A stretch of 63,867 nt of DNA, filler included, from Dugesia japonica (Eukaryota): assembly GCA_001938525.1 (NCBI GenBank). It is 5 parts of 5 records of this genome, joined end to end, with 100 filler letters (N's around TTAATTAATTAA, not from the genome) between each part and the next. Parts side by side here need not be neighbours in the genome. Positions count along the whole stretch, not along the records: positions 55,545 to 63,867 come from MQRL01635763.1; 4 more parts are not named here. One strand, given 5' to 3'. Below, piece after piece: positions 2,786 to 63,867 of the stretch. The stretch's first letter is position 1. The number at the start of each line of letters is the position of its first letter. Under the pieces are notes generated by a model. The model searched no databases and was not told the DNA's origin. It worked only from the letters and a program-made list of their open reading frames with translations. A program made the position numbers and the translations under genes.

Positions 2786-4198
2786 ATTATATCTAAAATA
2801 TATATTACTATTATATTTCTTTAATATAAAAATCCTAAGTGAATAAAAGCATCATAATTCATTATAGTTATTTAAATTACATAATAAAGTACAAAAATTT
2901 GAAAATATTAAACATTTCATTATAAACAGCTGTTGTGTTTTAAAATGTCGAGAAAATATTTATTATTATATAGCGTTGAAACAAAATTAACAGATTTAAA
3001 CAAGTTGATGACGAAAAAGGCATAACATTTTAATTAACAAAAATTAAATAAAAGTATACTTTTTTTTAATAATTTTACATGTCTTTTATTTCCCATTAAA
3101 GATCTATTCAATTAATAATTTTAAATTAAAGATTTTAACCTGTTTTGGTTAAACTAATATTAATTTAGGTATAATCTAAAGAGCGTTACATATAATTCAG
3201 GAAATATTTTCTGCTGTTTTATATTAATCATTTTTAATATTTTTACTATTATAATTATTTCTAAAATAATTACTGAACTTTACAATAGACCTCATAAAAT
3301 TTCATTAAATGAAAAGTATAATTCCAAAATATTCTTTTATACTATTCAAATACATCTTCATTTTATGTAAGCCTTTAAATTCATATATAATATACTTGGT
3401 ATTCGGGTGGAAATATTAATTCGGAGGAGAACTAATATTGCCTGTTAATAATTTCATGGGAAAAGCAAGATAATTTTTAAAAAAATTTCATTTTATGTCA
3501 ATAGACTTTACTGATTTCTTATTTTTAAAGTGAAAGAAGTAAAAAAAGATATCTAATTTAAAATATGGGAATTTATTTAAATTTTTTCTTAAGTCTTAAA
3601 AAGTATTTTTCATAAAGTTCTTTGTTTGTTAATGGATTTTATCTCTCTAAATTTATTGAAACTTTCAGGTTCTTCTTTAGTTTGAAGAAAATGTAATAGT
3701 TTTTTAAGCAAATAATGAAGATTATGAAAGAGTCTTTATACGAAAACTTTAACATTTAGAAAATTTTTAAGATTTTTAATATTAATAGGTATTTACTATT
3801 TTGATTTTAATTCTGAAATCAGAAAAAAAAATAATTATTTTATTTTACATAATTTTATGAATTTATTTCATTTTATATTTTACAAAAATTAATAGCATTA
3901 AATAAATCAAGAAGTCTACGGTTGATAGCTCTGGTAATAAAAGTTTTATAATTAAACCTAATTTTGTTTTTACGAGAATTTGATTTAACACGATACAAAA
4001 AATAATTATGTGAAATCAAATTCATGTTGAATCAAATCTAATCGTGTTATAAAGCGTAATAGGCTTTTTGAATATCTTTAAATTAATTTCCATATAAACA
4101 GAGACATCGAAATTTGAAATAACGTTGTTTGAATAATACGAATTAAATTTATAATTTATATTTACTAAATAATCTGAGCACTTAGTTATTCTTCAAGT

Positions 4199-5187
4199 AT
4201 GATGGAGGACAAGGATATTGTAACTGGCGACCACGTCAGGACTGTGCATGCGGTGACAAGGCAACATCATTAACAGAAAACAACTTTAGATGCATTACTA
4301 AAAAGCGCAAGAAATAATAAATTTTAAGGTCAGAAAATATGATGGAAAATTTGCAGAAGAAGCATCAAAATGGTTAAAGAGTATTGAGGAGTTGACTATC
4401 ATTAACGATTCCAATTTGTTGAATATCTTTGATTTACTATTGTCAGATGAAGCAGATATTATTGAGAAAGATTTTAAAAAGATTGAGATTACAACGGAGA
4501 AAGTCAAAAGATAGTTCACGGAAACATTTATGATTAAAAAAATCGTTTTCGGAGCTTATTTTAAAATAAGCAATGGCAAAACAAGAGACTGAAGAAAGGT
4601 TCTCAACATTCAAAATCAGGGTAAGAAATCTGATAGATAATTTCATGAATTCAGGACTAAGTAAAGATGAAATATGCAAAGGTGAAATGAAGTTGAAATG
4701 TGCAAAGTTGAGGGAAACATTGACAACACGTCCTAATATCAAGATCACGGAAATGAGATCACTAGCAAAGATTTATGAGGACAAGGAACATTAAGAACGA
4801 AACGCCGAAAAGGAAGATACCTGTATGATACAAAAAAAATGAGTTCTGCAAATGTAGTGAAACCCATACATAAATAGAGTGAAATAGGATAGATAGAAAA
4901 TAGGTGTAAATAATTTATCAATACAAAGAGCATATGATTAGAACACTCAACCAGCGATGATGGAAGATAGAACACGGGATGAGGCCAAAACTGCTAGTAT
5001 CGATGAAATATTTGGCAAGATGTTATTTTAATAGACAGAGGCAGACCTTTTTCAATGTGAAGAGGAAAAGGAAGTGGTAATAACGTATGGATCCAGACAT
5101 TTGACCGCTCATGAAAAAAGGTACTGTATGACAAAGAAAGAACTATTAGTTATACACAAATTTGTCCAATAATTGTAGCAATATATG
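4199..5187 (+). mobile_element. Internally deleted Ty3/gypsy remnant (gag N-terminus joined to an RNase H fragment)
   Basis: Gag-like frames with stops; about 5065-5170 encodes EKEVVITYGSRHLTAHEKRYCMTKKELL (gypsy RNase H); the 5' part is homologous to 34173-34470. Confidence 0.75.
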
Positions 5188-5654
5188 TGTTGGGGTGAAA
5201 CACCTGAATAAACGAAGTAAAGTAAGAAGGGACCCCGGAATGATAAATAAATAAAGATATAATGAAAGAATAATGCAAGACAACGAGATAGTGTAGCAAT
5301 TAATAATAATGCCTAGTTAATTATGAAAGATAATAATAACAAATAATTAAATTGAATCTAGTTGGGAAGAAAATTGGAAAATTATAATAAACAAAATGGA
5401 AAATAATTAAGATCAGTAAACGAAAGGATTATGATCAGCTATTATTAATAAAAGTCTGAATTATATTAAATTCATTTAAAATTAAAAGAAATAAAATTTG
5501 AAAAAATAAAGAAAATATTAATTAATAAGTACAAATAAAGAAAGATCATTTAACAGAAAAATACAAAAAAAACAGGTTTCAACAAGCACAATCCAATTTT
5601 GTTAAAATTAAAAAGATAACGCCGTCAGGGAGTTAGGAAAGGGTCATAAAGATC

Positions 5655-5835
5655 GGACCAATAAGAGATCAGAAAAAATACGAAGAACGAAGGCATAAGA
5701 TGGTTACTTAAAATAACCACCAATAAGAGACAAAGAAAATTTTAAAGCAAGAAACCAATAGAAAAGTAAAGAAAAATTTTAAAATAGTTGGCCAATCACA
5801 AAGGAGTCGTGGTGCAATCAAAATGGCATAAAAAC
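5655..5835 (+). promoter_or_regulatory. CCAAT-box array with TATA-like element (putative U3 promoter)
   Basis: CCAAT at 5658, 5720, 5755 and 5792, followed by CATAAAAA near 5827. Confidence 0.55.
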
Positions 5836-6662
5836 CCCCAGAAAATTAGGACAAAAAGTCAGATGTTAATTCGAAATTTTAGCGAGTCATTAGCCGAAAT
5901 TTTAAATGAAGAAAACAGTGTTAGTAAAGGATTTCATTACTATTATCTGAAAATCCATTGCAGAAAATAACAAGAAATGTAAGGATGTGTTTAATTTTAT
6001 CTAAATGTAATCTTATGTACAATTATTTAACTTGATCTGACAATAAACAGAAAGTTTTGACTTAAAGTATATTTTTATGTGAAGCCGTTATTCATTCTAC
6101 ATAAATTAGTCACTTCTACTAAAAATTTATCAGATCGCGAGAGCAATGAGCAAATAATTTTTGGCCATTTGAACCAACATGCTAACTCAGTGACAGCATC
6201 TATCTCACCACTCGACTGTTTATCTGCCGTTATCATCATACCGCATCATGACGAAATTGTCAGTCACCCAATTCAAGTTTCCGATTACTACCACCACGAT
6301 GAAATTGCTTTCATTTCTAATATCATTAACCACAGTGGGGGATTTATTGCCAAACAAGTTTGCTTCTATTCCTGGTAACTAATGATTCTCACAAACGATT
6401 GAATGAGACAACTCCGTAAGTTCATCAGGGCACACCAACATTAGTATTATTATTATTATCTTTACTAACATTATATTATTATCATGATTATTATTATTGT
6501 TATTATTATTATTATTATCTTAACTAAGCTTATTACTACTGTCATTATTTTTATTACCTTTATTAATATTAATATTATTATCATTGATATTATTATTGTT
6601 ATATTGTTATTAGTTCCCAAAATTATTAATAATATTCCCAGTTATTACCCTCAAAGTTGATC

Positions 6663-8569
6663 ATGACCTTTGTCACTCTTCCTGTCAAAAAGAATATATG
6701 GCATTTGAAAAAATTATGCTGACTGGGACTTAACAGACAATGTAAGTGATATTTTCTCTTTATCTCTTGTAGTCAATTTTCATTCTTATTAAGAAGGGGA
6801 ACACTCCAAATTATCACGACTCTCCTCCCCACAATAAAGTTGCATTAAATACGCTGTTCTCTAATCCTTGTTACGGCATTGAATTTTTAACTTACCTTTC
6901 TTTTAGTGAATCCAACCACAAATACAACTACGAACTGGAAGCTGTATAGATTAGACGACGGGCTCAAGAAGGATAAACATGTAACCCACCCACAAAATCT
7001 GTGCATTGGAAGTTTAGTATACAATTCAAATATGTCCCCTGCAGAGCAAAGAATTAAGCCGACAGAGGATAAATATAAGCGGGATTTTGGCAAATTCTGG
7101 CACCTAGGATATGCTTATTTTCCCGATCTACCTTCATCACCACAGTCGTCGTATACAGCGGAGTATGAATTAAACCCAGGGCACGAGAGATATACCATAT
7201 GACATTACCTTAAATTTTAATTTGTGTTAATTTTTCGAATAAACTAGTGATTAGATAAACTAACTTCCCTTGATTTGATTACCGATTTACAGCCACTTTT
7301 CGTAGAATCTAATTTGTTATTAATATCTTCTTTTGTTCGTTGTAGTGTCGCAATATGGGTGGCGGATTTATGAGGACGTAAATGACCGTACGGTTTTCCG
7401 TCGTGTAAATAATCCCTACGAGAGAGATGCAAGTATCCTCGTCAACCGCTCCAATATGCCACCTGTCAATCAAGAGCACCTACGCCGTGCAGACAAAGCT
7501 GAGCGTTAGCTCTACTTATTGACCTGCTCAGGGAACACAAGTAGTTAGAGTTCCCTCAAATCCAGCTTTCCCCAACTCGTCATCCGATGATAATTTTGAG
7601 AACTATTAGATTTGTCGATATAATTAATATAGCATATTCTTTGAATCTGGTACTTTTCACTTATAGAAAGCCATAGATCATTTGTGCCATTTGATCATTC
7701 ATAACTATTTTTCTGTTTCAGTGAATTCTTCACGTTCCAGATTGGTCGCACAAATAAAAAGTTACGAATAAAAGGTGATGAGAAAGAGATGTCCTGGTGT
7801 CTTTACAGCTGAGCCAAGCTTAATTTTGAAGCAGACATAGGGGCCGAGAAGATGAAAAATTGCGTATATAAAAAACGGTGTAATGAATATCGTGTGAGGC
7901 TTATTTCTCTCACACGCAGAAGCGTGCCTGGAAAGAACAGCTCGTATCTTTCGGCGACATAATCTGGTCTTTACATGACCGTGAAAATCAACTGGTCAAT
8001 GACATTGTAAACCTAAGAAAGAGAATTCCATTAGACCCATTACTGATTGATAAGGCAACTCAGATGCGAAATTGAATTTGCAGTTTTGTATTATTATCTA
8101 TAAATAAAGTTTTTCTCTTTAAAATTGAGTAAATAATACAATTTTCTACTTAATGGTTTGAAATCTTGAATGTGTGAATAATACGTAATTTATCTTCTTA
8201 CTTTCAGTGACTTGAATCCGGTTACCTAGAAGCCTTCGGCGGTGTCACAAATTATTACAACAGTTTCTTTTAGAACGACACTACACTAAAAGATGTGAAC
8301 GGACTCTACTGTGCTACATCTCCCAAAAGAATTGTCTGATCAAGAAAGTGGAACTCGTCTCCAAAAAAAAACTTGAGATCGCCAAACGAACAGCGAATCA
8401 GTTATTTAATAAGTTCAACTTTTTGACCCAGTGCATCCCTGATTTAGCAGCTCGTCATAGTATAGAAGCTTTAGAATGTTAGAATAGTGATGACGATGAG
8501 GCCGCATTCGACTTCACGAATGACGTGCCGATCTAATGGGATTGAACCGAGACTTTTGATGTTTTATAA
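6663..8569 (+). pseudogene. LTR-borne accessory gene: leader exon 6663-6741 plus alternative terminal exons A1 6907-7202, A2 7346-~7510, B 7722-8075, C 8208-8569
   Basis: Donor T|GTAAGT at 6741/6742 (phase 1); four pyrimidine-rich acceptors, all AG|TG and phase 1; AATAAA at 7238, 8103 and 8569; scattered premature stops. Confidence 0.7.
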
Positions 8570-9167
8570 ATAAATCTTGCTACGTGTCGTTCTGATTAGT
8601 TATCTTGCTTACGGAATTTAAGGGGAATTTTGAACCTGAATCAAAGGCATGCAAGCATGCACTCAAACTACGGGTTATGAGTAGTTAGCAATTAGTTTCT
8701 GTATAGATATTACATTAATAAGATTCATTTTAGAATTTTTAATATTATTAGTGTGAGTTTGTTTTGAAAATCGAGTTGAAATTTTTGTGTAATTGGTGAT
8801 CTTATTTTTGAAATCTTTTATTTAAAAGAAAAATTTAAATTATTGATGAAAAATTTAAATAACAAATATTTCGTTTAATAATATATTAAAATTTTTGACT
8901 AAAATTGGCTACTTGAGATGACCATTGAATAATAAAGTAAAATTTTTAATACATGAAATTTTTAACGTGAACGAAAATTTGGTCTTAAATTTTATATAAA
9001 TAAATGAAATATTTTTTAAATAAATTAAATTAAATTAATTTTAAATAAATAAAATTTTCGATTTAAGATTTTAAAAAATGATCACCAATGAAAACACGGG
9101 ATTTTAATTTGTTTGAATAAACAAATAGTGTTAAGTATAGTTTTTATTTCAAATAAATTTTACGGAG

Positions 9168-12100
9168 TTGAATTTTGATGTTGATAATGCGATGAGTTCT
9201 CCAAACTCATCTAACATGGTGGCAGCAGTAAACACTGATGTGATCACAAAAGGATTGTGGCCAAAAATAAACTTCGGGGCAAAGAACATCTTTGTTAACG
9301 AAGATCAGGAACGTTGGATAACATGTTTGCTTAATGAAGATTTAATGGAAGCATATGTGAAGACATTGAAAAAAGTTGATAGATATCGAGAGAGATTGCA
9401 ATTAGCTTTTGAGAGCAAGAGAGACATAATAAAAGATTTACAGAATCTTGTAAGCTATCGAGGTGGTAATGAAAAACTCGATGTGTTTTTTTAAAAAAGT
9501 GAAAGATTTTGTCGATAAATCTACAGCAAATGGCAAACTGACGAAAGAAAAACTCTTATCAAAAATGCTTATAATTTGTGCAAATAGTTAAAAAGCAGAA
9601 GAAGAGATTATCATGCAAAAAATTGGAGAAAGTAGAAGACTTAAAAGAAACGCTATCATTAGTTGAAAAAATAGAAAGAAGAGAGCCTATTGACGTACTA
9701 AAGAGTTGCGCAAGTGTAACACGTTGAGAACGTACTGGAGAGAGGAGACAAAATATGGAGAGAATTACTAGAAGAACGGAACCACAGTGTTGGACATGCC
9801 AGAGTTATTTGCATACAAAAAAAGATTGTCTAAAAAATTCTTAAGTGGAATGTTTGACTTGCTACAAGAAAGGACATTTAAGTAGAAATTGTCCAGACAA
9901 GATAACCACCAAAATGTTTCGAGTGTGATAAGATTGGTCATATCAGAAGCATTGTATGTGGTAGATGTAAAAGACCGGATCACAGAGCAGAAGAATGTTA
10001 TTCGAACATTAATAAACCTAGACTAGAAGAGAGAAAATACAATTTTAGAAGCGGACAACAAACAAAATTTTGGAGTCAGACAAAACCAATTCATGCCATT
10101 CGAGAAGAATTTGATGACGAAAATGAAGAGTGATTTTCTGAGAACATAATAGAAAATGATGATCCAAGAAGAGAATACCCAAAAGGCATGGCTCCGTTAG
10201 TAGAGGAGTTGGTTGGAGCCATCCATTAAACGGGATACCGCTTGAATATCCTCAAGAGACCGAGAAATGGAAGTTGGCGAAAAAGTTTACAGATTCCTAA
10301 AAAGAGAAAGTTTCAATGATGCGGCAGTTAACAAGGCAGAAATGATAGGAATAATTGAAGAGAAACATAATGCAGAAATTTCGTATGATAAAATGCAAGG
10401 GAGATCCAGCATTTCAGTGATGATCAAGGGTGAACAGATTGATTGTTTGTTGGATACAGGAGCAAGAATAAATGTGATGAGCATGAAAGGATTTAAAAGA
10501 CTCGGAGAAACANNNNNNNNNNNNNNNNNNNNNNNNNNNNNNNNNNNNNNNNNNNNNNNNNNNNNNNNNNNNNNNNNNNNNNNAAGTTGTAGTTTTAGAG
10601 GTGTGCAAGGAAGTAACATTTATAATAGTAGAGAAATTAATACCAGATCTAATTGGTTGAGTGGAATTTCAGAATATTTTTGGGTATCATCTTCAAAAAT
10701 AGTGAAGGGTAGACTTAAATAATCATCATCAATAATCATCGAGAAAGATTTGTTTGCAACATCGAGACAAAATTTGGAAGGCAGATACAGACCGGTGAAC
10801 GATTGATACATGCAATGGAGATTCTAGAAATTAACAAAGATCATCGATTGACTGTGATTATTCAGTATAATAAAGATGTATTCATGGCAGATAAATGAGA
10901 CATTGATTGCACACATTTAACGAAGCATCAAATAATCACTAAAGGAGGTCCAATCAACATAAAACCGTATCGTCAATCAATGAATCTAGAAGAGAAGATT
11001 GAAGAGGCCATAAAGAATCTATATGATAACGGTTTCATCTGGATTTGTACTTTTTAATGGAATACGCCATTAATCTGCGTTTGTAAAAATAAAAAAAGGA
11101 TTTACGATTATACTTAGACTTTAGACAGCTCAATGCAATAACTGAAAGACAAGCGTTTCCTATACCAAATGTGGACGAAATGCTGGATGCTTTGGAAGGT
11201 ATGCAGTATTTTAGCTCAATAGACTTTGGAAATGCATACTATCAAGTGGAGCTTAGTGAAGATTTACCAAACAAGGGTAATTTTATTTCAATAGAATGCT
11301 TTTTGGAATTGCAGCAGCATCAGGTACGTTCCAGGAAATGATGAATAAAGTAATCGGAAAAATAAAAGGATCGATGGTTTATCCAATCGATATTCTCACA
11401 TTTACCGAAACAAAGTAGCAACACTATGAAATAGTCAATAAAGTATTGACAGAAATTAAGAATGCTGATCTAAGAGTTAATCAGAAGAAATGTCAATTGA
11501 TGCAAAAGAAGATCAAATTTTTGGGACACGTTATTAATAAAGAAGGTGTCAAAACAGATCCAACTAAAATAGCAGCAATTTAGAACTTTGGTAAACCAAA
11601 ATGCATTAAGAAGATGAGAAGCGTTTTGGGAATTTGCAATTACTATTGAAAATTTATTAAACATTTTCCGAAAAAATCTAGATTGCTGGAACAACTGTGT
11701 AGGGGGCCAAGTAACAAGAAAATTGAATGGGCGAATGAATTAGAAGAAGTTTTTAATAGAATGAAAGAAGCAATAATGATGTTTCCAATATTATGTTTTC
11801 CAGCTATAAATAGAGGATTTATTTTGGACACGGAGGCGAGTTTCGATACGATTGGGGCAGTACTATCTCAAAGAGACAGCAATGGGCAAGAAAGAGCAAT
11901 TGCATATGTGTCACACGCAATGACGAGTCATGATAAAGGATATTGTACTACACGGAAAGAATTACTCGCAATATACTACTTTTGTATTCATTTCAAACTT
12001 TACTAATATGAGAAGAGATTTATCCTCAGAACAGACCATAAAGCTATCACTTTTATGCTAAATACCAAGGAACCGATAACATCACAGTTTCAAACTTGGA

Positions 12101-13262
12101 TTAATTATTTGACCAGTCTAGATATAAAATTAGAATATAGAATAGGATCGCTTCATACAAATGCAGATAAACAAGGAATGAATCCGATACATGTGCACAA
12201 TGTCTAATTTCCCCTGAAGATCCCAAAAGTGGAAAATTAAAAACAAGGATGTTAAATTCAGTAGATATTCAAGGAAAACAAGGCCATTTTGGAGAAAATA
12301 ATGAAGGAACATGGATACCTGATGATAAAGTAGAAGAAGTTATAATGAGGATACTCCATCTTTTATGTCATACTGGAACAGAAAAGGTGGCAGCGTATAT
12401 GAAGCATGAAAATAACGGGGAACATTTGTTGAGCAAAGTACAAGAGGTTGTCCGAAGTTGTATAACATGCCAAAAAGCTAAAGTGTTGACAACAAAAACG
12501 AAGGAAGAAATGAAAAAGACGCAGCCAGCCGAAATGTTTGAAATGTTATTTATAGATGTGTGTGGACAACTGCCGGAGACAAAAGGTCGGAAAAATATGT
12601 TCTCGGTATAATAGATAATTGCAGTAAGTATGTAGCATTGATAGCAATGACAAGACAAGATGAAGATACCGTACGGAAAGCAATAATGGAGAAGTGGATA
12701 TTAAAGTTCAGGTGTCCGAGAGAAATTCAAGTTGATTGTGGAAGAGCATTTGAGTCTAAATCAATGAAAGATTTTGGAGCTGAACATCAAATTACCTTCA
12801 GGATTTTGAGTCCATATCATCATAATGCAAATGGACAAATCGAGAGACAATTTAGAACTATGCGGGATATGAGAAATGCAACATTTAAAGAAAGATACAT
12901 GTAGATTTTGGGAAGATCTTCGAATCGAAAGCCTTCAAAGAGATGGCAGATTCAATGAATATAACATATTGCTCTTCAAGTCCATATCACCATAATACAA
13001 ACGGAATAGTAGAACGTCAATTCAGAACGATCAGAGATTACATCAATGCAACATTAAAAGATAAAAAGAATGAAAATTGGGCAGAATTAATACCAGAAAT
13101 ATAATATAAACTAAATGTAACAAGCCAGAAGACTTTGGGGATAAGTCCGGCAGAGTTGATATTTGGTAAGAAGATACATAGAGAAAAATGGTTCAATAAT
13201 AGAGAAAAGAAGGAAGAATCTGAAGAGTTGACACCACCAAAAGACATTTTCAAGTTGGAGAC
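9168..13262 (+). mobile_element. Degenerate Ty3/gypsy gag-pol (gag with Zn knuckles, protease, RT, RNase H, integrase)
   Basis: KCFECDKIGH knuckle at ~9915; LLDTGA protease at ~10450; RT motifs LDFRQLN and IDFGNAYYQV; RNase H FILDTEAS...TRKELLAI; integrase SPYHHNANGQIER; many stops and frameshifts. Confidence 0.95.
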
Positions 13263-34470: not shown

Positions 34471-34549
34471 AAACAATTACAAAGAAATATTATGAATATT
34501 CATGGCCATGTTAAAAAAATATAGAAGCCATAAACTGAAAACCTACCAC

Positions 34550-34646
34550 AGGGACGGTAGGGTAAATTCTTGAGAGGGTTCCCCTGAGGGCTGTTTTTTT
34601 TCCAGCCGCTTTTTTCGTGTCACTAAACTCAAGTAGGACCCTAACA
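34550..34646 (+). mobile_element. 3'-terminal (U5-like) fragment of the long-LTR family
   Basis: GGGACGGTAGGGTAAATTCTTGAGAGGGTTCCCCTGAGGGCTGTTTTT...GGACCCTAACA aligns with the reverse complement of 59743-59840 (...GGACTCCAACA). Confidence 0.75.
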
Positions 34647-44405: not shown

Positions 44406-44505
44406 NNNNNNNNNNNNNNNNNNNNNNNNNNNNNNNNNNNNNNNNNNNNTTAATTAATTAANNNNNNNNNNNNNNNNNNNNNNNNNNNNNNNNNNNNNNN
44501 NNNNN
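44406..44505. other. Artificial scaffold spacer
   Basis: 44N-TTAATTAATTAA-44N. Confidence 0.95.
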
Positions 44506-48950: not shown

Positions 48951-48975
48951 TTGTGCGCGTGCACAGGTTTCAAAT

Positions 48976-49656: not shown

Positions 49657-49699
49657 TTTATTTTATTAATAATTTAGGATTTAATGGGCCCCGTTGGGA

Positions 49700-50449: not shown

Positions 50450-50459
50450 TTATTTAAAG

Positions 50460-50860
50460 TAATATAAAATTCTTAAATAATTTCATCAAAAGGTTTAAAA
50501 CTAAGTTAATATAAAAAAATATAAACACAATATTCCAAAAATACTAGTTCTATAAGGTTAAACTCAAATTTTGTTATATACTTTTACATGTTTTTAAATT
50601 TCTTTAAAAGGTTTTAAACCATAATAATCAAAATAATAACTATGGGCCTCTTTATGGTTATGAAAAGCAACCCAATGATTTCCATTTTGATTTGTATTTT
50701 GATAATTAATAATTTTAGAAATCTGTGCACGCGCGCACAACTGTTTATCTTTCATTAATATTTCTATTTCAAAATTTAAAAAATTAGCAATAGAATACAA
50801 ATCAAAATCAGTTTTAGTATTTATTCCAAATGTTTTTAGAAAATCTAAGATCCCATACAT
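50460..50860 (-). pseudogene. Adenain-like cysteine protease
   Basis: IINYQNTNQNGNHWVAF...YYFDYYGLKP (catalytic His region; FDxxG motif). Confidence 0.85.
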
Positions 50861-51602
50861 TTTCTTATATGAACTAATAAAGAAATAGTTTCACCATCAA
50901 AATCTANAGGATTATTATTTTCATCTATAATATTAAATTTTAAAGAATCAATACATTTGGAGTTTAATCTTGAGTAAATAGAAGTTGAAGGTCTTTCTAT
51001 AATTTTAAAACCAAAACCAACAGTATTTACTGGAAAAGAATATAATAAATTCATTCGTAAGTTGTTAAAATAATTACCTTTAACTAAATTGCAAGTTATA
51101 TTTATCATATTAATGTTTAAAATATCCTGAAGAAGACTATTGTAGAAAATTTGAACTTTTTTACAAATAAATTTTATTTTGATCGAAGCTTTTTCTTATT
51201 TTAATGAAATTTAAAATATCAACTTTATTTTCAGAATAATATTTTTCTGGTAAGTATTCTTTAGGTAAAAACCTGAGATTGTATGAAAAAAGATTTAACA
51301 TCAAATTTTATTGTATGTTTTGTTGTTAAAGTACATTTTGTTGTTGAAAGATCAGGAACAATTTTAATTTCGTGATCTTTTAATTTAGTAGAGATTTCTT
51401 TAATTTCATAAGCACCTGGTTCAATCGTTTTTTGTTCTTCTTTCAATATAAAAGAATTATTTTTATTAGTAACATAACAAATTATATTATAACAACTAAA
51501 AGATAATAACGCCATTTCATAGTCGGAATCTAATTCTATTGGAAATCTTAAATCAACTTTTAAATCAGATTCTTTACCAACAACTAAAAATTGATGAGAC
51601 AT
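50845..51602 (-). pseudogene. Minor capsid (penton-like) protein, interrupted by an insertion
   Basis: PIELDSDYEMALLSF..YN..IEPGAYEI and INITCNLV...IIDENN.P.DFDGETI..HIRK motifs. Confidence 0.8.
51122..51210 (+). mobile_element. Degenerate hammerhead-repeat insertion within the minor capsid gene
   Basis: CTGAAGA-A-GAC-TATT-GTA-GAAA followed by the family flank TTGATCGAAGCTTTT...TTTAATGAA. Confidence 0.7.
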
Positions 51603-51619
51603 TTTATTTAGGAAAAGTA

Positions 51620-52510
51620 TTTATTTTTATAAACATTATATTTTTCTTTTGTAATTAATTCTTGGTTTAATGATTCTTTACCAACAGATTTAATTTCTTT
51701 GTGTAAATTATTATGACCTGCTTTTACAGCTGAAATTAATAATGCTAATTTTTCAAATAACGAGATGGGACTCTCTGGGACTGGATCACTTGCTGTTTGC
51801 TTGTGCTCTCGACTGAAAGGAGTTTCATGATCTTTAAAAGCTTTAATAAATTTTAAACCATCACCTTTAATATTTTATTGGATTCCTTTTTGAAGCTTAG
51901 GTATTTTAGAAGTTTTACGACTTTCAGGAGCTCGCTTTTGCTCGCGACTAGAAAGAGTTTCTTTTTCCTCAGTTAAAAATTTATAATATTTAAAATTAGG
52001 ATGAAATGTAATATTAAATTTACTTAAATAAATAACTTTCGCTTCTGGATCATTACTTCCATTTCCTAAAATTAAATTCATTATTTCTTCAGAATAAGGA
52101 ATTAGTTCTTGGTTATTTAAAAAGTATTTCTTTCCAATTTCTTCAAATAAATATATTACTGTTTGTGATCCTTTAAGATTAGGATAAATTATTCTTTGAA
52201 AGATTTTATCAAAAACAACTTCTTTTTCAAATATAGGTATATTTGTTAGAGATTTTAAAAATTCAGTATTTACAATAGTACTTGGAAAGAAATGTATTCT
52301 ATTTTCAAAAGGGTTTATTGGTTTTGTATGGGATCCTTTATGACTTAATTTTTCAAAAGCTTTAATCTAAGATAGTGGTTGTAAAGTTAAAGTGTCTTTT
52401 AACATTTTTGATTCAATTACTCCTGTAGTAGATAAATTATCATAGTCATCTTGAGCTTTAATTAATTCTTTCAAAAGTTTTATTCTTGCCAACATTTCTT
52501 CGTTATCCAT
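51620..52510 (-). pseudogene. Maverick conserved hypothetical protein (C-terminal AG[HN]N motif)
   Basis: FEKLALLISAVKAGHNNLHKEI resembles a recurrent Polinton ORF C-terminus. Confidence 0.6.
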
Positions 52511-52669
52511 TTTATTTAGGATTATCATGAGGATTTTCATAAGGTTTTTAATATAAACCATCACCACTAGTTTTTATTTGTATTCCATTTTTAAAGTTTT
52601 TAGTAATCATCTTCAACTCTGGTAAACTATTTTTTAAATATTTATGAATTGCACTTCCTTGATAAGGTT

Positions 52670-52935
52670 TTAAGTAAAGTCCTGAACCTTCTTTTTATAA
52701 TTCTTCTTATTTTTATTTGCTTCTAATTTTTCTTGAAGTTTCTTTTGGTCACGAATGTCAACGAGTTTTCTTTTCTGTAATTCAACTAATTCAGTTTCTT
52801 TTTGTTTTCTAATTACATGTCTAGAATTACTATCTGTACTAGCGATTTCAGTGGCAATTCCAGCTTTTGATGCTAAACCAGCAATTATAGCTGAAATTGC
52901 AGCAAGGAAAGCAAATCCTCCTTCATGTTCTTTAC
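52670..52935 (-). pseudogene. Putative virion core/membrane-lytic precursor fragment (GG|F protease-site-like)
   Basis: EGGFAFLAAISAIIAGLASKAGIA hydrophobic helix after a GG motif; fused in frame to truncated integrase by an apparent deletion. Confidence 0.5.
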
Positions 52936-52949
52936 CTAATTTTTTTATT

Positions 52950-53720
52950 ATTTCTGTATGGTATAAATTAATATAAGAAAATTTATCAAAATATTTTGAT
53001 CTAATTGCTGATTCTTTGTCAAACCAAATTTTACTTGGCACTCTGTTACTAGATTCAAATATATTTTCATAAGATTCTCGTAAAGATTCTTGATTTTTAT
53101 TTTTCATTGGTACACAAAAACCAAATCTTTAATATAAATCAATACGAACTAAAATATATCTAATTCCATTAGTTGATTTTTTAACTATATCACAACCCCA
53201 AGTATTATCTTTTTCTTTTATTACTTTTAGGAAATGCTTTGGTTTTCTATATTCGTGATGTAATTCATTTGATAATATTTCTTTATTTTTAACAATAGGT
53301 ATGAAACTCTCTTTGTTTGTTCCAGCACCTAAAATAATTTTACCTTTCGTTACTAATTTTACTAAACCTCTTTGTATTTTTTCAGAAGTAGTTGGATTTT
53401 CAATTTTGTTTAAATCATGAATTAAATTTACAACAGCTAAATGTCTATCTCTTAAATCTTCTGATTTTTAAGATAAATCATGTTTTAAAGCTGCTTCATC
53501 AACTCTATTAATTGGTTCTTCTCCAGGTTTTAGCTTAAGAATTACTTCGTCATTCTCTCGTAATCTTAAATCTAATCTTGTTCCTGGTCCTGTATAATTA
53601 TGTTTAAACAAATGTCTTTCTCCTGGATACTTTTCCCAAGTAAATGGTTTTAAAATTGTAGAAGTTAATTTAGAAGATTGTAAATTGCCTCCTTCAGTTT
53701 TGCGATTGCCTCCTTTAAAA
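52950..53720 (-). pseudogene. Parvovirus-type PLA2 domain fused in frame to RVE integrase (truncated)
   Basis: HNYTGPGT...PINRVDEAALKHDLS* then, in the same frame, NELHHEYRKP..TWGCD..YILVRIDLY*RFGFCVPMKNK..PSKIWFDKES. Confidence 0.85.
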
Positions 53721-53919
53721 CATATTTTAAATGTCTAGCTTTATTTTTTCTAAGTAATATCTTGTTACAATTTTCACAAAAACATTTATTATCCATTTTA
53801 GAATTATAGAATTTTAAGACTACTTGCATTATCCAAATATTAATCTAAATTTTCATCATAACAATTTTACTATTTGATAATTTCATTTCAATATGTTTTT
53901 CTTCTAATATACATCAACA

Positions 53920-55095
53920 TAATCTTTCTTTAAAATCAGGATCTTTAGTAATGTGTAAAGTTAATTTACTTACATCAAAACAAAAGATTGGGTACAAATT
54001 ACCAAACTCTTGTAAAGATAACTGAGATTCTGTTAAAAAGTCTTAACAACAATTTAAATAATTTAAATAAGAGAAAACCATTTCATTATTATCAATATTT
54101 ACATTCATTTATTGGGTAATATGTATTATTTAATTGTACTTGAATACTTTTAAGAGAATGTTTTGTTGTAANNNNNNNTTTTTTTTCATTTTCAACAGTT
54201 TTACTAATTTGTTGAATAAATAAATTATTATTCTTTTGATATGAAATTTCTAAGTCTTTTATTACAATAAATATATATTTTGGTTTATAAGTTAAATTAC
54301 TTAGTTTAACTGAATAATAATTTCTTGAATCTAAAGTTGTTTTTGAGGTATTTCTATTTAAAAACGAAACTTGAATAGATTTATTTGTGTTGATTCTTTC
54401 TAAAAGATTTACTTCCATTTTTGGAACTAATCTACATTCGGGAATGTGTAGTTCTAGAGTTGTTAATTTTAAAGTTGCTGTTTTATCTTTATCTCCAAAG
54501 AATAATAATTAATTTGTCGATTACATATAAATTCAATCTTTGTATTATATAACAATCTGTTGTAACATTGCATAAAACCAAATAAATGCTTTAATGGAAA
54601 ATAACCTTCAAGTTTCTTTTTTGAGTTATAAAGTTTATTTCTTTTATAAAAACCTGTATTTGTTCCCCAACTAGTAACATCTAAATCACCATTGTTTGCA
54701 TCTGGAATCCATCCTGATAATTCACCATATATTTTTTTATAAGTTGAAGTAGTTGTTACAAAATTTAATATTGTTGATGAAATTCCTGGGTCGTTGATTG
54801 TTTCCACATCTGAAGATCCTATAGTTAGTCTGATTGATTTAAATGAACTTGGAAACAAATTATTTTCTAAAGTTATTTTATCTCCATCTTTAGCATCAAT
54901 CTATATTTTATGATATAACATTGAATTACAAATATCTACTGGGTTTGATGATTGAAAAGATTTAAAAAGTATATTTCCAGAAGACATTAAATTATTAATT
55001 GAACCAGATGATGGTGAAATTCTTAAAACATCATTTTTAAAAAATAAATGTTGAAAATTGATATTACTATCAAGATAAAGTTTTATTGTATCCAT
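53920..55095 (-). pseudogene. Double jelly-roll major capsid protein
   Basis: LENNLFPSSFKSIRLTIGSSDVETINDPGISST, PLKHLFGF, KPKYIFI, SIQVQLNNTYYP and YPIFCFDVSK motifs. Confidence 0.85.
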
Positions 55096-55444
55096 TTTCT
55101 TTAGTAATAAAATAAAAACTATTTTTTATAATATACATGATTATTCATACTTGTAAAATTTTTAATATTAGCTTTGTGAAGTTCTTCAATTTCCTCTTTT
55201 GTATAAACAATACCTGGAGGTTTATATTTATTTATAAGACATAATTTTTTATGTTTATTAAATTTATTTTTACTAATCTTAAATTTTTGATCACAATAAC
55301 CACAATGCCATTCATAAATTTAAAAAGTTTTTCAATAGTTTAAGTCAGAACGATTTCTATCTGAATTTATTTTTCATTTATTTTGGTATTGTATTACTTA
55401 TGATTTTAATTTGAATTAATGGTCAAATAATATGAATGATTCAT

Positions 55445-55544
55445 NNNNNNNNNNNNNNNNNNNNNNNNNNNNNNNNNNNNNNNNNNNNTTAATTAATTAA
55501 NNNNNNNNNNNNNNNNNNNNNNNNNNNNNNNNNNNNNNNNNNNN
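55445..55544. other. Artificial scaffold spacer
   Basis: 44N-TTAATTAATTAA-44N. Confidence 0.95.
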
Positions 55545-56540: not shown

Positions 56541-56691
56541 TAATTGCAATCGTAATCAATCATAAGAGTTGGCATTAGTAAATTGAAATATGATTTTATA
56601 ATACCCATAATAATAGCGAAAATTAAATAATATCAATCACGAAAAAAGCAAAATAAAAAATGAAATACAAATTTCGAATATTAAAGAAATA

Positions 56692-56940
56692 ATTTATTAA
56701 AATAAAAGCTTCGATCAAAAATTTTTTTTGTTTGGTTTTTGAAAACAATTCTATATTTTGACTTTGTCTTCTTCAGGAAAACCCAATTCCTGATGAAGAC
56801 AAAATCGAAATATAGAATTTTTTTCAAAAACCAATAAAAAAAACAAATTATGATCGAAGCTTTTATTTAAACGAATTCTGAAAAACGATCAATGGTTACG
56901 GATAACAATTATTCTCGCAATAATTGCAATTGTAAAATTA
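56692..56940. mobile_element. Fold-back hammerhead-containing PLE terminal repeat
   Basis: AATTC-CTGATGA-A-GAC-AAA-ATC-GAAA-TATA-GAATT at 56785-56819, with an inverted copy at ~56745-56778. Confidence 0.8.
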
Positions 56941-58031
56941 AAGAAATAAATTCGAAAAGTATTATTCTCAAATCAACCAATGCTCCAAAACCTTTTCTTA
57001 CCTAAGGCAAACCAAAGTTTGCCCCAAAATTCCGCGGTACATCAAAAACTAGACTATCTAGATAATAATTTAAAACATATTCAAAATCAAATTCAAAATG
57101 ATTTTATTTAACATGCTGTAATATTTTTAAAAAAATTAGAATTCTTCAATATATTTTATTAAAAGTATTTTTTTTATTACAGGTATTCGCTTTATTGCAC
57201 GTATTCAAGGTTATTTGTTTCTAAGAAAGGACTTTTGAAAAGTTATTTAGTTAAATTTTTTTTATTTGACCTCTACACACCGGTGGCGGAGCACTGCTGT
57301 AAAGGTTAGAAAATAAACACTTCAAAAACCAGCTTTATTTACTTTAATAAAAATTGATAATTTTCAGTGCAAAATAAATCTTATAATTATCACGTGCACA
57401 AAAAATTCAGATAAATAACTCGTAAGGTCAAATCATCCCAAATTCTGATTGGATAAAACAGATTCACACAAATTATTCAATGACTGGTCTCATTTTCACC
57501 AATAATAAATAATATCTATTAAAATTCTTTAATGAATACCGACTAAAAAAATATTAATGACAATAGTCATCAATAATTTAAAATAACGATCAATAATAAA
57601 TAAAATCAATCAATTATTTTCAATCTTTAAAATTTAATGCAATTTAACAAAAAATTATCATTAATTTCTAAATAATTTTATAAAGATGATCATAAAAACT
57701 ATTGTGTAAATAATGTAATACGACATTTATCTGAAAAATATCAGCACATTAACAAGAAAATCAAGAAGCACTAAACTGACTGCACAACGAATGGCATCCA
57801 CTTTATAAGAATGCATTTAAGCTTAATAATCACAATTCAGTTGAATACACACCACGCATACATAAACTGAATTAACTAATCAAATCATTCGTAACACGTA
57901 TGAGTACGTACATTATCAATTTACACGAAATATTTAAATAGTAATTTATCCATAATTTCTTTTACATTATTCGATCCATATGAAATAATGATTTTGAGAA
58001 AGTAATAATAATAATCAATATTTACACTTAC

Positions 58032-58435
58032 TCCTAAAACACCGAATTTCTCAGCAAATATCCATGTAGATACCCAATCGATATCATATTTATGATTCAT
58101 AATGATCAGTGCATGTTCTTTACCGATATGTTTTAGTGAATCTTCATCTATGTATAGCCTCAGTTTCAATCCATTCCACCACTGTGCTATATAAGTAAAA
58201 TCTAGAATTTGGTATGTAAAAGATTTCAATTGAATACAAATTGATTACGAATCCAAACAAAATAACATAATCGATTTACGATAGCCCTGTATAATAATTT
58301 GTGTGTTTTGAACAAAATTACATATGTTAATAAAATAAATGGAAAAGTTACAAATCCAACTATGATAAATGTCATTAGGAGTATCATTTGCAGAATGAAC
58401 AATTTTTTAAAACGAACTGGAAGGAGATACAACAT
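58032..58435 (-). CDS. 1-acylglycerol-3-phosphate O-acyltransferase (AGPAT3/4-like), exons 1-2
   Basis: Exons 58435-58249 and 58201-58032 (47-nt intron); HFTYIAQWW...GKEHALIIMNHKYDIDW..AEKFGVLG contains the NHxxxxD motif. Confidence 0.93.
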
Positions 58436-59193
58436 AATTGGTCGATAAATAAATACTTTATTTAATGAATATAAATATAAAACTCGAGTTGAAAATATTA
58501 TTTAAAAATATGCGCGTGATAAAATTTAAAACAGCTAATTAGCTAAACAAAATTATTATATTGCTAAAATAAAATCTGTAAAATTATTAATTTTTATATA
58601 CGATACTATATTTAATACTAACAATGAATTGAATACATAAATCAATACACAATATCTACTAAGTTTTGAAATTGTACAAATTACAAATTTTAAAATTATT
58701 GAAATCTGAATTTCCAATATTGTTTTACTTAACGCAAATATATTGACAATTATAATTTGATGTAAACAAAATTAAGTACTTTTTCTATTTTGATTAATTT
58801 TGAATTTCGGATGGTAACCCACATTTCTTATAATTAGGTAGACTGTAAAGATTTAGAAAAATTGGTATCTTATGTTATGTAAATTAGATTTTATGATTTG
58901 AAGTTTTTATTCAAAGAATTAATTTCATAATTGTTGATTTATAGGACATAAAATTTTTGACATAATTTTTTACACAAAAAATATTTAAAAAAAAAATTTT
59001 ACATAAAAAGGTTTTAAATAAAAAATATTTTACATGAAAAACTAATTTAAAAAAATATTTAATAGTGTTTTCTTAATATCTTTGCTCTGCCTATTTGTTG
59101 TAAATAAACTAGAACTTCGTGATTTCTTTCAAATTCATCTTAAGAATTTTTTTCTTAATTGGATGTCTGATTTTTCTTTGTACACCATATAAT

Positions 59194-59742
59194 TGGTGTC
59201 AGGATAAAATTACAGGGGAAAAAATTACACAAGACGAAATTACACAGATGAAATTACACTAAGAAAAAATTACACAAAAAAAGTTATTAAATTAAAAAAT
59301 TTTAAATTATAAATTTATTAAATTTACTTGATTATATTACCATTAATATAAAATTATTCTCTTGTGTATATACTATGTTTAATTTAAATAAAAAAANNNN
59401 NNNNNNNNNNNNNNNNNNNNNNNNNNNNNNNNNNNNNNNNNNNNNNNNNNNNNNNNNNNNNNNNNNNNNNNNNNNNNNNNNCATGAAACTATTGATGGGA
59501 CTATCCATTGTCGATGTGCAAAATTCAGAACTTTACGTTGTCGATGGTTGCTTTATACTGAAGACAACAAGATTAATTAGGCTTTTGAAGCAGAATCTCA
59601 CAAACTTACAAATATAATGAAGGTCAAAATGTCACATCCAGGGGCAACTGCTCTATCAGTCATAGCTGATAATATGGTGACTACATCAAATGGTGTAAAG
59701 ATATGTTTACCCAAATAAGTTCCTTGACAAGGCGATTAAATG
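59194..59742 (+). mobile_element. MULE-like element 5' end with FLYWCH remnant, interrupted by the long LTR
   Basis: Subterminal AAATTACAC repeats at 59210-59276; DGTIHCRCAKFRTLRCR FLYWCH-like frame. Confidence 0.5.
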
Positions 59743-62700
59743 TGTTGGAGTCCCACCTGAGTAGATGGTGAAAAACGACGGTGGCCGGGGAAAAACGGCC
59801 CTCAGAGGTACCCCTTCAAAGAATTTACATCTAATGTCCCTAAATTAGATATTCAGTATGAAGCGGTTGACCTTCAACCTTTACGGGAGGTTCACACTCG
59901 CGCACCTTTGGTTTGGGTTCATTTGTTTTCCTATTATTTTAATCATCAAATAAAGAAATAAGATGTTAGTAGTAATATATATTATTCAATAGTTTACATC
60001 TCACCCAGAGCACCCGGGTCTAANCATTGGTTGGGATCATCATTTAAATAGCTAAACACGGCTTCTTCGTCATTGTAATCCCATTGTAAACACGATACAT
60101 TGCCTAATTGGAGGGACAGGTCCGAGATATAATTCTTTAAAAAACTGATCTTGTTTTGGAGGAGCTGTTTAGTTTGCTCCCCAGGTCTCCCTGTTTTCTA
60201 ATTATTAAATCTAATTTCTTGATTAATTTATTCCTTTGGAACAAATGCTTCAGGAGAGCCCTCTCGTTTTGTCGTTTGACATGACGCTCTACTAATAATA
60301 GTTGTATCAGGCAGTGACATCGTCTTAAACTATTTGGGAATTGGATTCTTGACACTAAACAAGAAATCATTAATTAATTTAATTCTCTTAACGGAAACGA
60401 TTCTTTGGATAGTAGTTAGCAAAAAAAATCTAATTACAAAATGGTTTATTAGATAAACATTATAAACAAGCGATATGACGGGCGTGTGGTTTGAGTACCC
60501 TTGTCCATCATAAGGGGTTCAAGCGACATTGCCTCTTTTAATTTTAAAACACCTTTTTTACCTGTTTATTTTCTCGGTCTTGGTAGGACCGGATGATCTC
60601 GGTAAAGAACTTGATCTGGGTCTTCCATATTCGTTCCTGGTTATGGGAGGCCTCGGCCTCTTACCTAAACGTTAAGCATTTCTTCTTATAACGCTTTACT
60701 TTGGCCTCTGCTGACGCAGTAGCGGACTCCCAACGTCGTTTTGCAAGTTTATATAAGTCCCATGTTATTTCCGTGTAATTGCTTGACTCTCGATTTTTTT
60801 GTGGGANCTACGGCACGATTTAATAAGGAATGCACTAAAAGTAAACAACATCACATTAANATAAATAGGGTATAACAAAACATGATAAAAACCGAAATCC
60901 TAACACTCAAATACACTTAGGTTACGAAATTATTCACTAGGTTATTATAAAATATGGATGTACGCAAGAATTATGTTTTTTAATACACACACCAAAACAA
61001 AGAAATAAAATTAATAGAGATAAAATTCCGTTTGGGTCAAAGTTATCATTTTCGGAGATTCCGCCTACTGCCTGATTCCACAGCTCCCATAGCGTGCTAG
61101 TCACAGACTAGCTTAGCCTAGTGTAAGGTGGTAGGTGCGCAGCAGACATCGGGATCACTGAAGGTCCTTCCCGCCATACACTGACAGTGGCGATCTCTTC
61201 ATTATGGATGGGGGGAAACGCGGTAGCCATATGATACACCTCCCACGCCCGGTCGGGCTCATTCCACTCATAGTATGCGCGCCGCCCAGCCACATCTCAC
61301 TCCCGTTCGTTCTATGCTTCTTCCTCAGTTAGGTTGGAGTAGTCGGCTAGTACACCCGCATTTCGGTCATGAGGGTTCCAGTATCTCTTAAAAATGATTC
61401 TGCCGGTACGTACATCATATAGCGTTTCCCATTTAAAGTCCATTTCTAAAAATAAAATGATCTAAGGCAATTATACTAATTAATATGAATTGGTTAAATA
61501 ACACAGATAAGACTAGATAATTAAAACTTTTATTTTTAAACAAATACAAATAATAAATAATACGGTATAACTTAAAGAAAAATCGTCACTCCTCGTCTAT
61601 GTCCACCTTTAAAGGTAATGGGAACATCTCGATGAAACACTGAAGGTCAGTCTCTTCGGGATGTTTCGTCTTACCTCGAGTCAGGATGTGGGCTATTTAT
61701 TATTTTATGCGTGCAGTTTTTCTTTGTTTCCGAATTATTATTAAACTATGAATCAATTCGGTCGTCATTCTCTAGAAAATTAGCAGACAATTATGGTATT
61801 TATAAGAGAAAATATGAATTCTCGTGAATAATAAAAAGGCCCTAGATCCTTTGCTCGGGGCCGACGCCAGCAGAAAAAACAATGTCTGATAACGACTGGT
61901 TTTTTTTGGAACTTATTAATCCCAAAATATTGGTTAAATGTTCATAAAAATATTAAACCCATGAGGGTGATCAGGTCCATTAAGTTAATTACTCTTAACA
62001 ACTTATCCGGAATTATAAAATGGGGTTGATGATTTTAACAGAGGGAAATCTCCGACCATTGCATTCAATGCAAACTAAGCTATCTATAGTGACACTAATC
62101 AAATTAATAATTCGTCCGCTCAATAATAATCGTAATAATAACTGCAATAATATCAATGCAATAAGGATGAATTAATAGTAATATTAACGAAATCAATAAA
62201 ATGGTGGTTATAATAATAATATTCTCTACAATAGTAATATTGATAGTATAATAATAGTGCTCATACATAATAATGATGTTGATGAACGTACATTATTGTT
62301 AATAATAATATCATTGACAATTGCATTGATAAGTAAACTGGATAGAGGGCATTAATAATACCACTAAAACACCCTTTTTGAATCATAATTTTAGAAGGAT
62401 CACTTCTTAACTACTTCATAATACGTCAGCCTCATGACGACGAAGGCAATAATTTATCTAGATGAAAATTAGGTAGATATGAATAAAATATATATATATA
62501 ATATTTAATCCATAAACTACTGACCATAACAATATTTATCATAATAATCAACTTAATAAAGTTAACATACAAGGATGACGTTAAGCGTAATAATCATAAT
62601 GGCAGCCAAAACCTAATGGTTTACAAAGTTATGTTAACATTGGTATCTGTGGGGATATTCATCAATTACAATGTTTAAAACGTTGAGTAATAACTGCATA

Positions 62701-63300
62701 CTGGCAAATTTGTCATTGTAATACGCAATTCATAAACCGACGGAATCACCTTGGATCTATATTGCTTGTATGTTAATTCGTGTAGTAAATGAACAGGTAT
62801 GTAAATTTAACATGCGAGAAACTGATTCCCCGGTAAAGCACACAGGCATAATCGACTCACTTTATTGATAACGAGATTTTGGTTAATTCTTGTCCTATCC
62901 TAATTCCTTTACACATACTCTTCAATAACTCATTGATTAATGTTGGTTTACATCGAGATTACGTTTCGTTAATGGATTACTGAAAGGTGTAGCATCGTTC
63001 CGTTCGTGACAGTTAAGATGAAATTAGTGTGGCGTGGTTGCATGCTAGATTATGACTGTATTGCTTTATTGGTTAGGAGAGAAACAGTTATGTGAATTTT
63101 AGTCGATGATTTCGACATATCCTGGTATTATTCTGGATTTGTGTGTTAGTTGGTTATCGTCCAAANNNNNNNNNNNNNNNNNNNNNNNNNNNTGAGAGTC
63201 ATAATCGGGAATTCCATGCTTCACCAAACAACTGAAACGGCTATTACTATACATTAGTTGTGCATAAATGAAATGAGTGTGTCTGTCTTGACGATAACTC
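59743..63300 (-). mobile_element. Long LTR-like element, copy 2 (3' terminus intact, 5' limit uncertain)
   Basis: Ends ...GGGACTCCAACA at 59743; ATT-rich tract 62100-62360; same exon cassette as copy 1. Confidence 0.7.
59994..61768 (-). pseudogene. LTR-borne accessory gene: leader exon 61768-61675 plus alternative terminal exons A 61445-61108, B 60834-60449, C 60354-59994
   Basis: TATAAATA at 61804-61797; phase-1 donor G|GTAAGA; three phase-1 acceptors; translated exons align with copy 1 exons A1/A2, B and C. Confidence 0.72.
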
Positions 63301-63867
63301 CGTGCAATATTCAACCTATTTGTTTTTCGAGAAAAATTGACAATTTATTTTGCATTTTATGACATCTAGATATTAAAAATAATTAATTCAAAACAATGTT
63401 TCCGACTGAGTTAAAAGTTTAATTATTTACTCATTAATATTCTGTTACAACTTTCATTTAATATCATAGGCACATAATATAAAAATATTTTTTTACTCAC
63501 TTATTAATTTATTCTGCAACGGGTTAATTTTCCTAACAGGAATTGATTTCAGTTAGAATTAGCTATAGACTTTTGCTGTAAATTTCTCTCCTCACNTATA
63601 TGAAATATTTTTCTCTAGAATTTGAATAGTGATTCCGATAAATTAATTCAATAGAAATGATGATTCTCACAATATAGATTATGACAAAGGATTAACCAAA
63701 TTTCTTCACAATAATTTTTAATGTGAATTACTCAATGTTATGTCACGAACAAAACTTAGTAAAAAACTGACTTTTTCTCTCATTTTCTGAAGGGTTTAAA
63801 TACCATTTTCTGATGCAACTCGGCATCATCGCCATTGGCTTGCTATTTTTTATTCAAATTTCTTCAA

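Follow-up and report, generated by a model that had tools for sequence, protein, structure and literature searches.

The genome of the planarian Dugesia japonica contains a very abundant unit of ∼ 4.7 kb that is bounded by TG...CA ends and carries a predicted internal promoter and four ORFs that appear to be orphans; this unit is probably a giant LTR. It is represented by three copies in the window, the whole stretch of DNA analysed here (63,867 nt), which consists of five unrelated scaffolds of 8–18 kb joined by N44-TTAATTAATTAA-N44 spacers.

Termini, insertion junction and abundance of the unit

The three copies are each located on a separate scaffold, and the two ends are never seen together in one copy. 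Copy 1 (5188..8700, plus strand), recognized by its homology to copy 2, has an intact left end that starts with TGTTGGGG at 5188, followed by the predicted promoter and ORFs a to d, and is devoid of the right end found in copies 2 and 3. Copy 2 (59743..63867, minus strand) has its right end at 59743 and its left part beyond the end of the window; its right terminus (59743..59765) opens with TGTTGGAG on the plus strand and thus reads ...CTCCAACA on the minus strand. Copy 3 (34534..34646, plus strand) is a right-end fragment only, which ends in ...CCCTAACA with the last base at 34646 and adjoins a gag relic of the type of gypsy A (see below). All three termini, as well as the alignment between the end of copy 2 and the fragment ending at 34646, are as claimed in the original prediction: the last 115 nt of copy 2 (59743–59857) align with 34534–34646 at 69% over 117 columns (pairwise E-value of 1.3e-9), and none of 2000 anchored shuffles reached the observed score at 60, 100 or 150 nt.

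Copies 1 and 2 are homologous, if distant (58% over 496 columns; tblastx E-value of 4.6e-21), and their homology stops at ∼ 8700–8735, 75–110 nt before the end of copy 2. Positions 5781–5880 of copy 1 match positions 63849–63751 of copy 2 at 71%. Thus, copy 2 extends past the end of the window, and collinearity with copy 1 predicts its start at ∼ 64440 and its length at ∼ 4.7 kb. Of the element originally delimited as 59743..63300, with a length of ∼ 3.6 kb or more, the end at 59743 holds, whereas 63300 marks no boundary.

Two sets of DNA contigs and two runs of poly(A) RNA, four of the 24 data sets listed, were aligned to positions 57600–60806 at 80% likeness. In one of the contig sets (X2, records 11, 12 and 13) two contigs bracket the junction at 59743 and a third one bridges it: record 11 follows the flank and stops at 59742 with 10 letters left over, whereas another contig covers the unit between 59890 and 59743, with 19 letters left over. 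With this support from independent DNA contigs, the insertion junction at 59743 is genuine. A terminus longer by 2 nt (TGTGTTGG) was rejected, as the contigs break at 59742/59743 and the longer form is absent from copy 3. Copy 2 is inserted into another repeat (59482..59742, depth 68–397 versus a baseline of 11.8).

The unit belongs to a very abundant and diverse family. Compared with a summed contig depth of 11.8 in the unique flank, the depth is 15–16 times higher just outside the end at 59743, 148–162 times higher in the terminal bin of copy 2, ∼ 700–770 times higher at 59847–59953 and 2826–4922 times higher at the ORF c motif, these multiples being measures of contig depth and not copy numbers. 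Loose contig ends at 60600 and 60314 belong to diverged relatives that, judged by eye, keep the ORF frames (IWKGQVESFA versus IWKTQIKFFT in copy 2, and RLLRRLLLER versus CLIQLLLVER).

The copies in the window are decayed and nearly silent. None of the RNA data sets listed was found to hold copy 2. Within the stretch used for the RNA alignment (57600–60806, with the promoter and ORFs a and b lying outside it), ORFs c and d have an RNA depth of at most 2.65 in run X9 and 1.21 in run X12, with no joints there; the adjoining host gene is spliced in the same poly(A) runs. In one of these runs sense reads cover only the last 210 nt of the unit, which might be taken for a second transcription start at ∼ 59953; this candidate was rejected because DNA depth also falls near that position, so that divergence explains the limit of the sense reads. 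Copy 2 lies upstream of a host gene that is transcribed, at a distance of ∼ 1.26 kb, and the host acyltransferase exon has one protein match at 91% as well as a match to a mollusc protein at 57%.

Predicted promoter, ORFs and splice sites

The putative core promoter of copy 1 (5792..5864, plus strand) comprises a CCAAT box at 5792, a TATA-like box at 5827 and an Inr-like TCAGAT at 5859; its homologue in copy 2 (63765..63838, minus strand) has CCAAT at 63838, a TATA-like box at 63802 and an Inr, TCAGTT, at 63770. The spacing between TATA and Inr is 32 nt in both copies, and none of 400 shuffles reached the score of the promoter alignment. A predicted internal Pol II promoter of the CCAAT–TATA–Inr type, ∼ 670 nt from the left end, is thus conserved in both copies that cover this region. 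Downstream of it there is an ATT-rich stretch and then four ORF blocks.

In copy 1 the ORF blocks span 6907..8536 on the plus strand and include ORF a (6907–7202) and the broken ORFs b (7346 to about 7609), c (7722–8075) and d (8208–8536), each of them led by a pyrimidine-rich AG acceptor followed by TG. On the minus strand of copy 2 we found ORF b (61027..61445, broken by stops), ORF c (60449..60834, broken) and ORF d (59994..60354, frameshifted); the motif that is best conserved across the family, at 60560–60600, is part of ORF c. In copy 2 ORFs c and d are likewise preceded by an acceptor and TG, and the acceptor of ORF b is followed by AA-ATG, a start in the same phase as the TG starts of c and d. 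Blocks b, c and d are homologous between the two copies at 32–48% identity and contain stops or frameshifts in both of them. The differences between copies 1 and 2 are distributed over the three codon positions as 93/69/124 in 190 codons (P = 3e-4), a figure somewhat inflated because the blocks were picked by tblastx, which favours such a pattern. Judged from this comparison, the substitution pattern of the ORFs appears to be that of protein-coding genes.

The products of the four ORFs appear to be orphans, with no detectable relatives in the protein searches made. A Pfam scan of the cassette pieces returned nothing below an E-value of 0.03 and no transposase, integrase, Rep, capsid or polymerase family; a gypsy-like H2C2-DDE transposase had no Pfam match in any of the ORF pieces scanned. 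The lack of a transposase is also expected of non-autonomous copies. For ORF d, a word search confirmed none of three candidates of near length and none of 1255 longer ones. The alignment of ORF c, the only one submitted to HMMER against 1.84 billion representatives, gave two matches, a FAR1-domain protein of sage and a butterfly protein, both of which were rejected as repetitive and unrelated. Sequences from the PDB gave nothing significant with ORFs b and d, and in the atlas search ORF a had no usable match and the second half of ORF c matched below 0.9. The structure model of ORF b has a pLDDT of 37, and a WW domain perceived by eye at its N-terminus was discarded for want of Pfam support. 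The terminus pattern was found at two metagenomic loci, both 20-nt chance matches; among viral contigs it retrieved none, and none of 55 stretches was confirmed by ORF d. Rfam and tRNA scans were empty.

A candidate leader donor in copy 2 (63495..63500, minus strand) consists of an exon ending in A followed by GTGAGT; this A would complete an AUG with the TG that follows the acceptors. Its counterpart in copy 1, at 5979, is preceded by T, not A, and the homology between the donors at 63500 and 5979 is not significant (P = 0.128). In copy 1, four of the seven acceptor-like sites are followed by TG, and these are exactly the ORF-leading ones, compared with 1 of 81 elsewhere (Fisher's exact test, P = 7e-5). 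A start codon split across the splice junction (A|UG) is something we infer rather than observe, because of the T at the copy 1 donor, the non-significant donor homology and the frame of ORF c, where the AUG frame joins the conserved frame only through one indel in each copy.

At 59756, 14 nt inside its right end, copy 2 has a polypyrimidine-CAG|G acceptor-like site that faces outward and is the sole acceptor-like site of this copy at the strict cut-off; in copy 3 a weaker site, TAG|G, is found 10 nt from the end. No RNA joint at 59756 was seen in the poly(A) runs aligned. An outward-facing acceptor would make sense if transcripts run on into a PBS and gag. The last 218 nt showed no special fold (z-score of −0.89). 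The AATAAA hexamer, which follows three of the four ORFs in copy 1, was dropped as evidence, since such hexamers occur 20 times there.

The LTR reading and its alternatives

In our view the chances are about even that the unit represents the giant LTR (∼ 4.7 kb), in solo or partial form, of a gypsy-type retrotransposon with an internal region outside the window. Much of what had led to this reading stands, namely an abundant multi-kilobase unit with TG...CA boundaries, a predicted transcription unit and short inverted ends, whereas none of the defining tests for an LTR (PBS, PPT, TSD and paired copies) gave a positive result. The TGTTGG...CCAACA signature is there, in imperfect form and on different copies: TGTTGGGGT at the left end versus TGTTGGAGT and TGTTAGGGT at the right ends, the pair compared originally coming from diverged copies (∼ 58% alike) on unrelated scaffolds. 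The inverted match covers 9 nt, or at most ∼ 23 nt with mismatches; the start of copy 1 and the reverse complement of the end of copy 2 share TGTTGG.GT and CACCTGA.TA, and with the first six bases fixed the anchored P-values are 0.027–0.12. The match extends beyond the few bases that are usual, as that of a short TIR would do too. The same comparison with the end of copy 3 gave no signal (P = 0.22–0.99). Over 350 nt, the inverted comparison of the start of copy 1 with the end of copy 2 was matched by 51 of 400 shuffles, and the direct comparisons by 58 and 23 of 400, against 0 of 400 in the positive control for the inverted-end test, which makes long TIRs unlikely, as well as short paired LTRs. 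A PBS is absent after both right ends available (CATTT... at 59743 and TGTCT... at 34646), as solo or 3' LTRs allow, and no recurrent PBS-like loose end was found at 59743 among the 24 loose ends listed (1097 more exist). Before the one left end available, at 5188, there is no PPT (8 of 15 purines). The window, with its scaffolds of 8–18 kb, contains no pair of direct copies around gag-pol, and no TSD is visible in it, where no copy has both ends. The ends alone are not decisive, because TGTNR occurs in gypsy LTRs as well as in DNA transposons of the Ginger type. An R/U5 region of 4 kb that is full of ORFs is mechanistically awkward.

The main alternative, which we regard as unlikely, is a self-contained DNA element with short TIRs, either non-autonomous or with an unrecognized transposase, that would be moved by an integrase of the Ginger or Polinton type and carry its own spliced cassette. 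Ginger1 and Ginger2/Tdd elements have TGTNR ends and sizes of 2.6–7 kb, TIRs down to ∼ 40–45 bp and, in some Ginger1, introns (PMC2836005); the ends and the size range are thus shared with the unit. The start of copy 1 aligns with the reverse complement of the end of copy 2 over 54 columns (P ∼ 0.03 at 25 and 60 nt), the promoter and ORFs are self-contained and neither a PBS nor a PPT is found in the flanks at any of the three junctions. However, the inverted match ends at ∼ 23–54 nt even though copies 1 and 2 can be aligned clearly in other non-coding regions, and it does not extend to copy 3. No TIR of 40–297 bp was detected: for the ∼ 40–270 bp expected of Ginger1 there are the across-copy result of 51/400 and the weak match of 23–54 nt, both from comparisons between different copies. 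The ORFs contain neither a DDE domain nor a gypsy-like integrase, and an outward-facing acceptor at the right end would be useless to such an element. The flanks (TATG, CATT and TGTC at the three junctions) differ from the CCGG/CCGT/ACGG target duplication of Ginger1; for Ginger2/Tdd, with TIRs of 45–297 bp and a preference for RTATAY, one flank is TATA-like (copy 1) and two are not.

Gypsy-type sequences on both sides of copy 1 bear on a second alternative. Upstream is a degraded relic, gypsy A (4086..5187, plus strand), with an LTR end, a PBS-like site at 4225, gag and RNase H; copy 1 interrupts it inside the RNase H domain (Pfam RT_RNaseH, E-value of 1.5e-08 for 5041–5187). Downstream, GC content drops from 37% to 18% at a change point at 8690 (8674–8716), and a probable AT-rich LTR of 517 nt, TGTATAG...TCTAACA (8700..9216, plus strand), assigned from this change point and the motif geometry, begins at 8700. 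It is followed by gypsy B (9217..12900, plus strand), which has a PBS-like TGGTGGCAGC, presumably fitting tRNA-Leu, and a degraded gag-pol with zf-CCHC, aspartyl protease, RNase H, Integrase_H2C2 and rve domains in Pfam. Gypsy B is cut inside its integrase at 12900 and, with its far end missing, offers no readable TSD. A relative, gypsy C, is 67–70% identical to it in pol and has a PPT (13 of 15 purines) followed by an AT-rich LTR without the cassette. The motif TTGTTTGAATA, found five times in the window (0.38 expected), occurs 409 nt downstream of 8700 and, in gypsy C, 393 nt downstream of the LTR start defined by the PPT.

It could be argued that copy 1 and 8700–9216 together form a single 5' LTR of gypsy B of 4.03 kb (5188–9216), which would prove the giant LTR within the window. 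Such an LTR would run from TGTTGG at 5188 to TCTAACA at 9216, with a PBS-like site and gag-pol next to it in the same orientation, and the missing PPT before 5188 would be expected of a 5' LTR. Also in its favour, 8700 ranks only fourth among the 73 TGT sites that could pair with the end at 9216, and the alignment of the whole B and C LTRs is not significant by itself (108 of 300 shuffles); for their 3' parts, 6–9 of 400 shuffles reached the score, in windows chosen around the motif. Against it are the GC change point, the lack of any match between 8736–9216 and the ends of copies 2 and 3 (154 and 342 of 400 shuffles, respectively) and the occurrence of TTGTTTGAATA at a like distance in the cassette-free LTR of gypsy C, and we judge it improbable. 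Most likely, the gag-pol beside copy 1, of an ordinary ∼ 3.7 kb, belongs to a separate element with its own 517-nt LTR, nested in the right end of copy 1.

The weakest alternative, which we find very doubtful, is an internally deleted non-autonomous short-LTR retroelement of the TRIM or LARD kind, or else a virus-like or satellite genome that has become integrated and has ends of the integrase type: the orphan proteins are in line with it, as is the likeness to complex retroelements and small DNA viruses, in which a leader is spliced to several accessory ORFs, but the two ends share no direct repeat, viral contigs are matched neither by the terminus pattern nor by ORF d and no Rep, capsid or polymerase family was found.

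Returning to the giant LTR, we tentatively propose, at less than even confidence, that it is a multi-gene accessory operon with one promoter and leader, four ORFs, an A|UG start and a last acceptor for gag, present in hundreds to thousands of solo copies. The first 670 nt would act as U3, and the leader exon would be spliced alternatively to the acceptors of ORFs a to d, its final A joining the TG after each acceptor to give AUG. As the AUG would be assembled at the splice junction, translation of the ORFs would require splicing. In a full-length element, transcripts that stay unspliced, or that use the acceptor lying 14 nt within the right end, would lead into the PBS and gag, and LTR–LTR recombination would leave solo copies, each with the whole transcription unit. 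As to the predicted dispersal of complete transcription units across the genome, an abundant unit with a predicted promoter and ORFs is confirmed, whereas the LTR identity is not, ORFs b to d are broken and RNA depth over c and d is low (at most 2.65).

Comparison with known elements and implications

Complex retroviruses have LTR-encoded or leader-spliced accessory genes, such as sag of MMTV. An extra ORF3 is described for LTR elements of bdelloids (PMC5408684). In both of these systems extra proteins are made from the spliced RNA of an LTR element, but they come from single ORFs or from ORFs between pol and the 3' LTR, whereas here four ORFs, a predicted internal promoter and an apparent split AUG are found in one unit bounded by its termini. 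The Ogre/Tat gypsy elements resemble the unit in having multi-kilobase LTRs (1.9–6.5 kb) and one or two extra ORFs of unknown function, which are assigned to the internal region (PMC6431247); in contrast, the four acceptor-led ORFs described here lie between the TG and CA ends, and no internal region is linked to them.

Burro is more than 30 kb in total, of which the internal region makes up as much as 25 kb, and its polyprotein has ∼ 4,900 aa (PMC6431247). Like the unit, Burro and GYPSM1 of Schmidtea are very abundant, inhabit an AT-rich animal genome and have accessory ORFs, and multi-kilobase ends are implied for Burro. However, no domain of the Burro polyprotein was seen: no internal region coding for a Burro-type polyprotein of ∼ 5,000 aa (with BIR, MATH, BCL2 and env-like domains) is linked to the unit, and the only adjoining gag-pol is the ordinary one of gypsy B. 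The sections consulted of two further articles give no LTR anatomy (PMC8532177; PMC11410931). Literature searches with narrow phrases, which are no proof of absence, retrieved neither ORFs within LTRs nor follow-up studies of giant planarian transposons. A repeat library may already include the family in the form of a consensus that lacks annotation.

If the unit is an LTR, the scope of LTRs would widen beyond a promoter and ends to a selected cassette of several ORFs, which would be multiplied by the formation of solo LTRs independently of gag-pol and would be a source of orphan genes, promoters and splice sites throughout the genome. Should the operon reading be true, every solo LTR would amount to a complete transcription unit that codes for proteins. 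As a TIR element, the unit would represent an unrecognized and very abundant DNA transposon that carries genes and has ends of the integrase type. LTR or TIR element alike, the family carries four predicted ORFs without detectable relatives.

Scaffold joints and gypsy remnants

The window is made up of five unrelated scaffolds joined end-to-end through spacers of the form N44-TTAATTAATTAA-N44 (13306-13405, 31724-31823, 44406-44505 and 55445-55544), so that neighbourhood across these four spacers is meaningless. Near-identical duplications that flank 50-N gaps on either side (13439-13859 and 38197-38819) are probably unmerged contig overlaps.

The integrase of gypsy B, a degraded gag-pol element, is cut at 12900/12901, where ∼ 9 nt of microhomology mark the joint to the integrase tail of a related, C-type gypsy (86% to 41597-41967). 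This joint could be attributed either to a deletion within the nested cluster or to misassembly. The motif TTGTTTGAATA is found five times (at 4125, 9109, 34099, 37564 and 41027) versus 0.38 expected; four of these occurrences lie ∼ 100 nt from the 3' ends of ordinary gypsy LTRs, and the exception, at 37564, is without explanation.

Other elements and a host gene

A Polinton/adintovirus-like scaffold (about 44820-55444) carries broken frames that look PolB-like on visual inspection, along with a double jelly-roll capsid domain (54472-54900, Pfam E 2.6e-06). A palindromic MITE-like element of ∼ 190-250 nt is present in three copies (15398-15645, 56691-56940 and 20124-20273). An 87-nt inverted repeat (18944-19030 and 20388-20474, 95%) encloses 1.36 kb and adjoins a Penelope-like RT fragment (20414-21319) that was recognized by eye and had no Pfam match. 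An isolated Cys-containing ORF of 127 aa at 39557-39940 (+) likewise lacked a Pfam match.

The transcribed host acyltransferase gene at 57921-58486 (-), with relatives in PF01553, has a 47-nt intron (58202-58248) supported by 59 reads in one run. Reads over this gene stop near 58465-58486, ∼ 1.26 kb downstream, on the same strand, of the right end of copy 2 of the TG...CA-bounded unit, the candidate giant LTR.

Insertion sites of the TG...CA unit

Two scaffolds have in common the 16-nt end TGTTAGAGTTTATCAA, at 31612 (+) and 34673 (-), which may represent a terminus from a different TG...CA family; copy 3 of the unit ends 27 nt inside the latter occurrence. All three copies are contained in or adjoined by other repeats (junctions 5187/5188, 34533 and 59742/59743) and two of the three adjoin the same relic type, gypsy A. 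A target preference of the TG...CA unit is possible (n=3).
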